DNA of 45,604 bases from Escherichia coli (GCF_003334335.1 NZ_QOWQ01000036.1), one strand, 5' to 3'. Shown: positions 42,288 to 45,604, numbered from the stretch's first letter. Notes: generated by a model not told the origin, from the sequence alone. Translations and numbers: made by a program.

Positions 42288-43049
42288 CTATTCAAACGTG
42301 AAATCAATAAGTTCATCAGGGACATCGCAAACAATATGAAGACGGATTTCTTCTCTGCCGTGACTCTTTTCACTCATTGCGTAACTGTCATGCTCTGGAT
42401 TATTTAATTCTTTCAGCGGAAATTTTTCCTCAAAGGCTTTATTTAGCCGCCCCTGGTTTCCTTTTACCGCGAATAAATAATCACCTCCCTGTTTTTGTAT
42501 CTTCTCTGCAATATCTTTCTGGCAACCCATCGCATCAGTTGTGATGATTTTTCCTTTAATATCCAGCATGTTAAGAAGTTCAGGGATAGCTGTGATCTCA
42601 TTGGATTTCTTATCCGTCTTGATCTGCCCGATGACCAGACTGTGCATTGTTGAGAACGCACTAATGACATGAATCGCTCCCCTGCGGCGACTCTTGTCAT
42701 AAGAGTGCCGGAGCGTTTTTCCATCAATTGCAATGACGTCTTTATCATTTGATGAATGGCAATCACGCATCCAGTTAATAAAGCACTCGTGAAATTTTGC
42801 AGGACTGATACAGGATACAACTCTGGCAATAGTATCGTGAACAGGAATACCATTTTCAAAATCACCATATTGCTTCAAGAAATCGAGATGTGTTTCCCCG
42901 AAATCCTCTATATCTTCCCAACTTTCTGCACCAGAAATAACGGCAAAAATAGTCAATAGTAGGATGCCTGACAATTTATGCTCTACTTTCCAGGCTTATC
43001 TGTAATCGGGAATAATAGAAATATGTTCCATCAATTTTTTAAGTTCCAT
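42288..43049 (-). pseudogene. ybfD: H-repeat-associated transposase remnant, copy 1 (ybfD-like), in-frame TAA at codon 18 and 3'-truncated
   Basis: [17 protein letters not shown]-stop(42996-42998)[10 protein letters not shown]... then 228 codons; ends ...[12 protein letters not shown] where full-length ORF-H continues W-K-G-L. Confidence 0.75.
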
Positions 43050-43174
43050 TTGTTCACCTTATTTATGTAAGGAGTATTTGATCATGTATAAGCTATGAAA
43101 AACAGCTTTAGGTAATAAGGAATATCTCAATTTTTAAACATAAAATGCGAATTATTTAGTACAAAAAAGTAGCG

Positions 43175-43429
43175 TTACGTGATCTTTCCCTGGGATACAA
43201 CTCTGGCAATGGTATCGTGAACAGGAATACCATTTTCAAAATCACCATATTGCTTCAAAAAATCGAGATGTGTTTCCCCGAAATCCTCTATATCTTCCCA
43301 ACCTTCTGCACCAGAAATAACGGCACAAATAGTCAACAGTAGAATATCTGACAATTTATGCACCACTTTCCAGGCTTGTCTGTAATCGGGTGTAATAGAA
43401 ATATGTTCCATCAATTTTTTAAGTTCCAT
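43175..43429 (-). pseudogene. H-repeat transposase N-terminal fragment, copy 2 (84 codons)
   Basis: [22 protein letters not shown]...IARVVS then out-of-family QGKIT-stop created by the repeat junction. Confidence 0.8.
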
Positions 43430-43554
43430 TTGTTCACCTTATTTATGTAAGGAGTATTTGATCATGTATAAGCTATGAAAAACAGCTTTAGGTAATAAGG
43501 AATATCTCAATTTTTAAACATAAAATGCGAATTATTTAGTACAAAAAAGTAGCG

Positions 43555-43809
43555 TTACGTGATCTTTCCCTGGGATACAACTCTGGCAATGGTATCGTGA
43601 ACAGGAATACCATTTTCAAAATCACCATATTGCTTCAAAAAATCGAGATGTGTTTCCCCAAAATCCTCTATATCTTCCCAACCTTCTGCACCAGAAATAA
43701 CGGCACAAATAGTCAACAGTAGAATATCCGATAATTTATGTTCCACTTTCCAGGTTTGTCTGTAATCGGGGATAATAGAAATATGTTCCATCAATTTTTT
43801 AAGTTCCAT
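43555..43809 (-). pseudogene. H-repeat transposase N-terminal fragment, copy 3 (84 codons)
   Basis: Near-identical to copy 2 (I13, T19, E23 variants); same junction-derived C-terminus. Confidence 0.8.
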
Positions 43810-43951
43810 TTTGTTCTCCTTAATTAGGTAAGGAGTATTTGATCATGTATAAGCAATAAAAAACAGCTTCAGGTAATAAGGAATATCTCAATTTTTAAAC
43901 ATAAAATGCGAATTATTTAGTGCAAAAAGTGAACTTTTGATGATCTTTCCC

Positions 43952-44315
43952 TGGCCGTTGACTCGATTGCCGTAGCTCGAACGCAAGCACTCTTATCATT
44001 CAATGCCATATTGTTCAAAATATTAAAAACATTATCTTCGCATTTTTTGCAAATTTATATTTGCCCGAGTATAAATGCTCCGATATCTCTACGGATATAA
44101 TTTTTGTCAGTGCAGAATTCAATTGCCAATCTAACAGCGTCTTGCCCCCCTCTTAACTGTAATACTCTGGCAGATGAAATCCTTTTCAAGGAATTGCGAT
44201 CATCAAGTAAGCGAAATAATTCATCATCATTTAGTTTCTTACATTTATTATATAAACCATACTCTTTACTTGCCTTTCTTTTCTGGTATGTATTTGACAT
44301 TGCAGGAACCTCCAT
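43952..44315 (-). pseudogene. yibA-like HEAT-repeat (PBS-lyase type) gene remnant
   Basis: MSNTYQKRKASKEYGLYN...AFILGQI then TAA (44055-44057); homology continues in frame (ICKKCEDNVFNILNNMALNDKSACVRATAIESTA) to ~43953 where the H-rpt terminus begins. Confidence 0.7.
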
Positions 44316-44509
44316 AAAGGCTATCTTTTTCTATCGTTTGACTGTCTGGAGTCCTCCACCTACTCTGCCATCAGCGCACACGATGTTTGATTATCCTTAC
44401 ATACTTATTTTCCGTGGCCAAAATTCAGAATTCTCCCATCATTTTTGCCTATTTCTATAATAAAAACCCCACCAGCAATTTGGTCTGAGTGAATGGTACC
44501 TTCAACAAC

Positions 44510-44752
44510 TCAACTTGTTGTTAACTCAGTGATTTCGTATGGTTTTTCTTCTTCTGCGGCATCCTGTCCATAACGATTCTTAACATATATCTCAGCTAAT
44601 TCCAATGCTATAGCTTTATTTTTAACCAAATTTCTAACGGTATATTTACCTTCACTTTCATACTTGCGCATTATTTTAATATTATTATTACACTGCGCCC
44701 ATGTGTTGTATGTAAAAACAAACAAAGATACAATGACACAGTTCCTAAACAA
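44510..44752 (-). CDS. Small secreted protein, candidate Rhs immunity protein
   Basis: 80-aa ORF 6 nt downstream of the Rhs tip stop; N-terminal signal-peptide-like segment (MFRNCVIVSLFVFTYNTWA); AT-rich like the tip. Confidence 0.5.
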   Translation of the reverse strand: MFRNCVIVSLFVFTYNTWAQCNNNIKIMRKYESEGKYTVRNLVKNKAIALELAEIYVKNRYGQDAAEEEKPYEITELTTS

Positions 44753-44758
44753 TATTTT

Positions 44759-45604
44759 TTACATATTACCATGAACTCTGCAGACATTAGGTAATCCTTT
44801 TCTGTTTGTTATTTCCTTCCCGTGGTTATCTATTGCTTTAAAATTACCACTGGGCGTACCTAAATAAAATGACTTGATATTGTTATCTTTACTTTTAACT
44901 ATTTTCTCATCTTTACCTGAAAATATTTCGTCCCAATATTCTCCATGACTATCTGCACCATGAGTATGATAAGCTGATACTTTCTCAGTACCATTAGGGC
45001 AAGGGCTATTGAATGGATATGATCCTTTTCTTTCTCCTCGGTTAGGTGCTGTTGAGAAATATCTGCCACTATTATCCTTACATATTAAACCAGCGAACTC
45101 TTTATCTTCGCAAATAGATTGGCTATTTATTTTATTTAAGGCGCCATATGCGGTGCTATCTATAGAATCAAATTTATCTGGACCTATCATAGCGGATAGT
45201 GTGCCGCAAAGACCATTAGTACATGCCCCCGATTTTGCATCCTCCCACATAGATAAACCCAGGGGGTCGATGTCTGATATCGGATTCAATTGATATCCAT
45301 ACAGGTTCCATCCCCCCTTCAGTCCAATCGGATCCTGAGTGATATATCGCCCCTGCAGCGGGTCATAATAGCGGTGGCGGTTGTAATACAGGCCGGACTC
45401 CTCATCATACTGCTGCCCCGGCAGCCGGATAAGCTGCTGCAGCTGATGCGGGTTCTCTTCATTCAGCAGGTTGCCCCATTCATCATATTCTGCGCACCAC
45501 GCTGTTGCCCCTTCCGTGCTGATGAGCGCCAGCGGCAGGCCGCGATGGTCGCAGTGGTACAGGTGGATTTTTCGCGCCGGCGTGTACACCGGGTCCATCT
45601 GGTT
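44759..45604 (-). CDS. Rhs protein C-terminal part: end of conserved core plus ~164-aa variable tip (putative toxin); 5' end outside window
   Basis: Core-end signature ...[39 protein letters not shown]; abrupt GC-rich to AT-rich switch at ~45254; Cys/His-rich tip; reading frame runs to the window edge. Confidence 0.85.

Follow-up and report, generated by a model that had tools for sequence, protein, structure and literature searches.

The stretch of Escherichia coli DNA analyzed here (GCF_003334335.1 NZ_QOWQ01000036.1; 45,604 nt, called the window throughout) ends within an Rhs gene of the rhsB type, which is read from the minus strand and encodes a C-terminal toxin tip of the DUF4329 (Tox-JAB-2) family, followed by the cognate immunity gene yhhH. 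The explanation that we favor, with a probability of roughly 60%, is that the DUF4329 tip is intact, that yhhH is dead, that the tip belongs to a family of envelope-acting toxins, and that the whole module has been relocated to the rhsC locus.

On the minus strand, an open frame runs from the window end at position 45604 to a TAA stop codon at 44761-44759 and comprises the last 281 codons of the Rhs gene, which represent the C-terminus of RhsB from E. coli K-12. The Met codon at 45598 is internal and not a start, since the K-12 RhsB sequence reads through this position. The visible C-terminal part of the Rhs core (45254..45604, minus strand) covers 351 nt, the 5' part of the gene lying beyond the window end; it matches the Pfam family RHS (PF03527, E-value 4.3e-16), corresponds approximately to residues 1131-1247 of K-12 RhsB, and is identical to K-12 rhsB at the DNA level. 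The core terminus, which the first-pass annotation of this DNA had recognized as canonical, can be read directly: the motifs DPIGL (45334-45320) and DPLGL (45268-45254) form the pattern DPIG-X18-DPLG at 45334-45257. This pattern exactly matches the published Rhs aspartyl-protease motif for self-cleavage, DPXGX18DPXG, and the Rhs-type toxin Tse5 is cut after the Leu behind the second DPXG (PMC10684867). In the window, self-cleavage is predicted to occur after the Leu encoded at 45256-45254, and the predicted released tip (SMWEDAK...HGNM, 164 aa) is encoded at 45253-44762. Precisely at the tip boundary (45254), the GC content falls from 0.55-0.61 to 0.30-0.41; both this switch and the 164-aa tip, which contains six Cys, had been described in the first-pass annotation and are borne out. 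The presence of an RHS core end with an aspartyl-protease motif directly before a variable tip identifies the gene as encoding an Rhs / YD-repeat toxin.

The tip had previously been left without a family, an assignment that the profile search supersedes. The tip, located together with the TAA stop at 44759..45253 on the minus strand, contains the Pfam domain DUF4329 (PF14220) at 45157-44801, which is matched with an E-value of 3.7e-39 over model positions 2-114 of 116; this match, like that to the RHS family, is far beyond chance. The domain has been catalogued since 2012, when it was named Tox-JAB-2, assigned the motif E, H[ST]H, S, D, and matched to Imm-NTF2-2 as its immunity family (Zhang 2012, PMC3482391); in K-12, the same tip belongs to rhsB. 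An exhaustive search of a representative library identified 730 DUF4329 relatives at E <= 1e-3, nearly all of them located C-terminally in Rhs/YD proteins. The JAMM-type residue set is present in the tip as E52, H96-T97-H98, S112, and D115, and its conservation was counted over 107 homologs, each below 90% identity: E52, S112, and D115 are found in all 107, H96 and H98 in 106 each, and T97 in 103. As judged from these residues, the JAMM metal-site motif is intact and the tip would be catalytically competent. The structure predicted for the tip (mean predicted local distance difference test score, pLDDT, 90.9; predicted template modeling score, pTM, 0.85) shows a JAB/MPN fold, and the Foldseek search that the first-pass annotation had proposed returned PfJAMM1 as the best match with a probability of 0.96. 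The best structural matches of the tip are active isopeptidases.

The tips of K-12 RhsB and RhsD have all six Cys in common. Their abundance had been taken as a clue to action in the periplasm, but most of the Cys are specific to the enterobacterial branch; the six Cys were therefore rejected as a hallmark of DUF4329 as a whole. C58 and C85 occur together in 47 of the 48 homologs with a Cys at position 58 and are the only pair that recurs widely in the family, a co-occurrence that fits a disulfide. The tip DNA is 99.9% identical to K-12 rhsB, and the sole amino acid difference is at residue 37 (window position 45144), where Gly replaces the Asp of K-12. This replacement was considered as a toxin-inactivating change and rejected, as the column is variable and the allele is present in 99 genomes. 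In 2,689 of the 5,426 complete E. coli genomes, a single place covers at least 80% of a 1.8-kb query from the window, which shows 99.9% identity to rhsB-yhhH of many genomes.

Other resources added little on the tip and its partner. PDB sequence searches with the tip, YhhH, and two family profiles gave no toxin- or immunity-domain match, and the matches that one family profile did retrieve all came from the Rhs core segment within that profile. NCBIfam contained no model for the tip or YhhH. A single weak match in PHROGs (E-value 0.004) was to a family of unknown function and tblastn against phage genomes found no match; thus, phages gave no clue to the substrate.

The partner gene yhhH is broken in the window. 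The first-pass annotation had reported an 80-aa open reading frame (ORF) with an N-terminal signal-like segment six nucleotides downstream of the Rhs gene. This ORF is indeed present on the minus strand at 44752-44510, with a TTG start at 44752, 6 nt (AAAATA) past the Rhs stop, and its N-terminus is a conserved export signal, but it is an incomplete gene, namely a truncated and frameshift-disconnected yhhH. The yhhH pseudogene as a whole (44405..44787, minus strand) belongs to the Imm-NTF2-2 family (PF15631; YhhH/YbbC), which is matched over all positions, 1-68 of 68, at an E-value of 2.6e-26, only if a TGA codon is read as Trp; therefore, the ORF is a pseudogene of a family member. This TGA (44512-44510) replaces the Trp93 codon of yhhH, which is TGG in MG1655, DH5alpha, and MT102 (residue numbers follow the 127-aa protein). 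The encoded ORF ends at codon 81, covering about half of the 68-position model, and the frame continues beyond the TGA with the untranslated C-terminal 34 codons and stop (44509-44405, minus strand). Among twelve diverse members of Imm-NTF2-2, the invariant columns are Y73, G74, P83, W93, G97, G106, G107, and H125, and five of these eight (W93, G97, G106, G107, and H125) lie at or past the stop.

The second lesion of yhhH affects its start. The normal ATG (44787-44785) is located inside the 3' end of the Rhs gene with AAGGA seven nucleotides upstream, and is out of frame with the yhhH body because a homopolymer over the Rhs stop codon (44755..44760, minus strand) is A6 instead of the A7 that alignment shows in MG1655 and MT102. 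A7 links the ATG to the body and yields the 127-aa protein, whereas A6 leads into a 38-aa dead-end frame. The exact 61-mer with A6 occurs in 89 of about 2,700 genomes, and A6 could be a homopolymer error. DH5alpha also has A6 and is annotated with a pseudogene (L001:6606-6988), whereas MG1655 has A7 and an intact yhhH (L002:4900-5283); this is either a real difference between the laboratory strains or a homopolymer error in one of the two assemblies. Of 2,617 complete genomes, two contain the exact 61-mer with the TGA; their haplotypes differ from each other and mismatch the window at 9 and 19 positions. A 53-aa product implying the TGA allele occurs on at least nine short public contigs; the ATG-initiated version of this product is found only on contigs of less than 2 kb, and exact look-up of the 80-aa product returned no match. 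On one public contig with the truncated allele (L075:1063-1920), the HEAT-repeat gene that follows is intact and encodes 285 aa, and thus the TGA allele exists in more than one downstream context.

The proposal of a toxin/immunity pair accordingly holds for the arrangement, an Rhs tip followed by an immunity-type gene, but not for the state of the immunity gene, which is broken by the TGA and A6. The window thus carries an intact toxin gene together with a broken immunity gene, although trace amounts of full-length YhhH are conceivable, since misreading of UGA by tRNA-Trp would restore the wild-type residue. Imm-NTF2-2 lies directly downstream of Tox-JAB-2 in the window, with a gap of 6 nt or an overlap depending on the start, and the same order is found in 9 other genera or metagenome-assembled genomes (MAGs) and in two metagenomic loci.

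The compartment in which DUF4329 toxins act is indicated by the export signals of their partners. By a hydropathy heuristic, the N-terminus of intact YhhH has a positive n-region, a hydrophobic core, and small residues at -3/-1 leading to a mature start QC. Homologs of YhhH with as little as 65% identity retain the charged n-region, the hydrophobic core, and a W-A cleavage-like site despite sequence drift. The DUF4329 tip of K-12 RhsD shares the six Cys, and the partner of RhsD, YbbC, starts with MKYSSIFSMLSFFILFAC. For a family-wide view, reference genomes were searched with a degenerate DNA pattern that was designed by hand to capture YHTHG-x10-FSxxD and yielded 65 loci, 58 of them confirmed as DUF4329. 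An adjacent small downstream ORF is present in 43 of the 58, with a gap mostly between -4 and +15 nt, and a signal-peptide-like N-terminus was found in 37 of these 43 ORFs. The same rule flags 89 of 1,008 control ORFs (8.8%) of similar size from the same loci (Fisher p 1.5e-30).

The partner ORFs fall into at least three sequence families that are not linked by BLAST, and exported partners span E. coli, Pseudomonas, Xanthomonas, Serratia, Bdellovibrionales, and many MAGs. Partners of the Imm-NTF2-2 family were found in Pseudomonas, E. albertii, Serratia, Methylocaldum, Pelomonas, Bdellovibrionales, and several MAGs; because it is present in Pseudomonas, Serratia, Bdellovibrionales, and MAGs, the family is not restricted to E. 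coli. Signal-bearing Imm-NTF2-2 proteins are also the partners of the tips most closely related to that of E. coli (52-55% identity). The largest partner family consists of the 157-aa product of the downstream ORF at locus L023 and 23 relatives, which are 110-180 aa long and possess a signal peptide; many of them contain the motifs CxLxDGYxC and 'LKHYRIGF...YIV.F..LLLP', and no Pfam match was obtained for this family even at E <= 10. The third family is small. Unification of the two main families into one NTF2-like superfamily was not supported (hhalign probability 9%).

Members of DUF4329 outside Rhs proteins also point to the periplasm. Of 31 non-Rhs family members with lengths of 340-600 aa, 21 have a Sec-like N-terminus by a strict rule, and more are apparent by eye. 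One non-Rhs group of about 420-530 aa, represented at 15 of the loci, combines a Sec signal and a beta-strand-rich N-terminal region with a C-terminal DUF4329; its hosts are Acidiferrobacterales, Arenicellales, and other gammaproteobacterial MAGs, and no description of this architecture was found in the literature consulted for the family. At 11 further MAG loci, the DUF4329 gene is followed by a gene for a FAD/NAD-binding oxidoreductase-like protein of about 436-459 aa with a GxGxxG N-terminus, in place of the small exported ORF; at such loci, DUF4329 may serve a housekeeping role unrelated to toxicity.

In the field of type VI secretion systems (T6SS), export of an immunity protein is explicitly taken as a sign that the toxin has its target in the periplasm (PMC10469887). 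Since immunity proteins reside where the toxin acts, the exported partners and the Sec-bearing non-Rhs members favor an envelope target. The periplasm-acting effector suggested in the first-pass annotation is thereby backed, and periplasmic action of the family can be regarded as well supported by the comparative sequence data.

These observations suggest the following mechanism. As in other members of the family, the Rhs cage would cleave itself after the ...DPLGL terminus and free the tip, which would be delivered to neighboring cells, while YhhH would bind the toxin and protect sibling cells. Judging from the exported partners and the Sec-exported non-Rhs members, the toxin would act in the periplasm or cell envelope and not in the cytoplasm. 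The likeliest chemistry, which we offer as a guess with about even odds, would be that the tip hydrolyzes an envelope peptide or isopeptide bond in a Zn-dependent manner, candidate substrates being the peptidoglycan stem or cross-link and the Lpp-peptidoglycan link. An (iso)peptidase is proposed because every biochemically characterized catalytic JAMM enzyme among the structural neighbors is an (iso)peptidase; the guess thus draws on the known activities of the fold and on the putative compartment. A broader proposal, to which we assign slightly less than even odds, is that DUF4329 tips are the first JAMM-fold antibacterial effectors, acting as periplasmic Zn (iso)peptidases on the envelope and neutralized by exported NTF2-like proteins and at least two other families, and that the label 'nuclease/RNase' is wrong. 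As for the locus in the window, the module may have moved beside ybgA-phr at the rhsC locus via H-repeat recombination, and the dead immunity gene would presumably be tolerated because the toxin is unexpressed or undelivered, or because a second yhhH copy exists in the genome.

Many natural E. coli strains match the housekeeping part of the window (20000-42200) with 100% identity. In these strains, the genes after ybgA-phr are, in order, ybfD-ybfL-ybfQ-ybfC, an orphan Rhs fragment, ybfB, and rhsC, and rhsB is located about 3 Mb away near nikR. In the window, an rhsB-type block comprising the tip, yhhH, a yrhC-like HEAT pseudogene, and the first 380 bp of an H-repeat is joined at 43573 to the H-repeats of the rhsC locus. 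The joint lies within a tandem array (42813..43954, minus strand; Tandem Repeats Finder: period 380, 3.0 copies, 95% matches) in which the 5' end of H-repeat/ISEc1 is present in three 380-bp copies, each with an 84-aa truncated transposase ORF. The copy at 43573-43953 has the rhsB-locus haplotype (the 5' end of yhhI), the others belong to the rhsC-locus set (ybfQ/ybfD), and BLAST against K-12, MT102, and NCTC9104 places break-points at 43573 and 43193. On the basis of these haplotypes, the tandem copies are interpreted as the recombination joint of two Rhs loci. Relative to the K-12-like order ybfD-ybfL-ybfQ, the window has a deletion of ybfD/ybfL and an added yhhI-type copy. The junction of an rhsB block with the rhsC locus occurs in 1 of 5,426 complete E. 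coli genomes, that of the K-12 derivative MT102, where the same tip forms a 963-nt orphan without an N-terminus downstream of rhsC-ybfB, another orphan, and a HEAT gene. The junction could be a real event of the 'rearrangement hot spot' type or an assembly join across the repeat.

The HEAT-repeat (YibA-like) pseudogene (43950..44315, minus strand) matches the NCBIfam model PRK09687 at residues 6-86 with an E-value of 3.5e-31 and contains internal stops. The annotations of DH5alpha, Ec1120, and MT102 list it as a HEAT-repeat pseudogene, and in MG1655 it corresponds to yrhC; it is the relic of an RhsA-type immunity gene, carried behind yhhH with the rhsB module. Scanning of 44200-45604 for promoters and terminators revealed nothing over the shuffled expectation.

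K-12 rhsB-yhhH (b3482/b3483) has the same tip, partner gene, yrhC HEAT pseudogene, and H-repeat start. DH5alpha differs from window positions 43573-45604 by two substitutions with no gaps in 2,032 bp and shares A6, and MG1655 differs by the same two substitutions and the A7/A6 indel; relative to K-12, the window thus has TGA at Trp93, A6 in place of the A7 of MG1655, and Gly instead of Asp at tip residue 37. The location is different: the window module lies beside ybfQ/ybfD-ybgA-phr at the rhsC locus, whereas K-12 rhsB-yhhH lies beside nikR...yhhJ. K-12 rhsD-ybbC is a paralogous pair, in which YbbC is a signal-bearing paralog of YhhH.

Several observations weigh against the favored explanation. 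No experimental study of any Tox-JAB-2 toxin or of YhhH/YbbC was found in the literature (papers on 'YbbC' concern an unrelated B. subtilis gene and were set aside), and the spacing between HxH and Ser is 13 residues in the tip versus 7 in classic JAMM proteins. The signal rule is a crude hydropathy heuristic distinct from SignalP, the 43 DUF4329 loci are phylogenetically non-independent, and 15 of the 58 loci have no adjacent small ORF. The 5' part of the gene lies outside the window. Full-length K-12 RhsB contains a DUF6531 plug (E-value 6.8e-18) and RHS repeats, whereas its PAAR fragment is non-significant (E-value 0.24); therefore, delivery by T6SS can be proposed for this lineage at the level of the family. 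K-12 is not known to possess a T6SS.

The published alternative places the toxin in the target cytoplasm. On the basis of an analogy to RadC and the loss of the residues of the tunnel for the ubiquitin-like (Ubl) tail, a nuclease was proposed for Tox-JAB-2 (Zhang 2012, PMC3482391), and later papers repeat the label 'RNase' for DUF4329; a Salmonella survey, moreover, reports a CdiI domain but no signal peptide for the partner of a PAAR-Rhs-DUF4329 protein. If so, YhhH would neutralize a nuclease in the cytoplasm, and its hydrophobic N-terminus would be incidental or a membrane anchor. However, the label is given without an assay, and one of the papers that use it states that activity and substrate are unknown; signal-bearing partners from at least three families at diverse loci, the Sec signals of the non-Rhs members themselves, the conserved Cys pair with the six Cys of the subfamily, and active isopeptidases as the best structural matches all speak against it, and we consider a cytoplasmic nuclease improbable. 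Errors of sequencing or assembly are a somewhat less remote concern, though still an unlikely account of the locus, according to which the TGA, A6, and/or the rhsB-rhsC junction would result from a homopolymer miscall or a mis-join across the H-repeat. A difference between A6 and A7 is the classic homopolymer error, and DH5alpha and MG1655 differ at exactly that base; the junction lies within a 380-bp repeat and recurs in a single complete genome, and the strains with 100% identical housekeeping flanks have ybfC and an orphan at the same place. On the other hand, the change from TGG to TGA is a substitution, which a homopolymer error does not explain, it is shared by two genomes on different haplotypes and at least nine independent short contigs, and MT102 independently carries the same module at the rhsC locus.

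A substantial possibility, although we rate it below even odds, is that the module in the window is a decaying relic, in which an orphan or displaced tip is unexpressed or undeliverable for want of a complete PAAR or T6SS, yhhH is being lost neutrally, and the question of the periplasm applies to the family. In the window, yhhH carries two independent lesions, and it is broken in many other ways in public data. Such decay also agrees with the adjoining HEAT immunity pseudogene and H-repeat fragments, the orphan state of the tip in the sole genome with the same junction, and the PAAR fragment of K-12 RhsB. Against it stand the tip ORF, which is intact with all catalytic residues present, and the retention of TGG and A7 in more than 96% of E. 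coli carriers, from which it can be argued that yhhH is usually maintained. Furthermore, orphan tips can reportedly be re-armed by recombination with the main rhs gene (Koskiniemi et al. 2014).

The favored explanation, an intact tip of an envelope-acting family beside a dead yhhH, can be compared with known systems. With the Tox-JAB-2/Imm-NTF2-2 pair of Zhang, the window shares both Pfam memberships, the E/H[ST]H/S/D motif, the position after the Rhs repeats, and the pairing. Differences concern the partners and the activity: Imm-NTF2-2 was described as 'E. coli only' and its export signals were not noted (Zhang 2012, PMC3482391), whereas signal-bearing members were found here in further lineages along with two additional exported partner families, and the predicted nuclease activity conflicts with the compartment evidence. 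Compared with the catalytic JAMM/MPN+ isopeptidases PfJAMM1, AfJAMM, Rpn11, CSN5, AMSH/Sst2, BRCC36, Cap3, and BilC, the tip has 10-20% identity, HxH-x13-S in place of x7, an extra N-terminal helical segment, a secreted toxin context, disulfide-type Cys, and no evident Ubl partner. The pairs Tae/Tsi, Tge/Tgi, and Tlde1/Tldi1 consist of periplasm-acting T6SS effectors and periplasmic immunity proteins. With these, the DUF4329 pairs share the export signal on the immunity protein, which implies an envelope target. Rhs-type Tse5/Tsi5, which acts at the inner membrane, provides a precedent for an Rhs carrier with an envelope-acting tip (PMC10684867). The catalytic fold of DUF4329 is unrelated to those of Tae, Tge, Tlde1, and Tse5, and a peptidoglycan or membrane activity of DUF4329 is a proposal.

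As a locus, the module is unremarkable, being a known E. coli pair in a slightly damaged and relocated state, and the family outweighs it in importance. The tip occurs in about half of the complete E. coli genomes, a second one is present in K-12 RhsD, and DUF4329 relatives are found in Salmonella pathogenicity island 6 (SPI-6), Xanthomonas, Pseudomonas, and Serratia. The 'RNase' label, which papers copy from one another and which rests on analogy, is likely a mislabel in the literature. The comparative data predict that the tip would be toxic in the periplasm, that only exported YhhH would protect against it, and that toxicity would depend on E52/H96/H98. The state of the window, with its toxin intact and its immunity gene broken, offers a small natural test of Rhs module decay. 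If the proposed activity is true, JAMM enzymes would be a new enzymatic class among cell-envelope-targeting effectors, and the label 'nuclease/RNase' would be wrong for about half of E. coli genomes, many Salmonella serotypes, and several plant pathogens.

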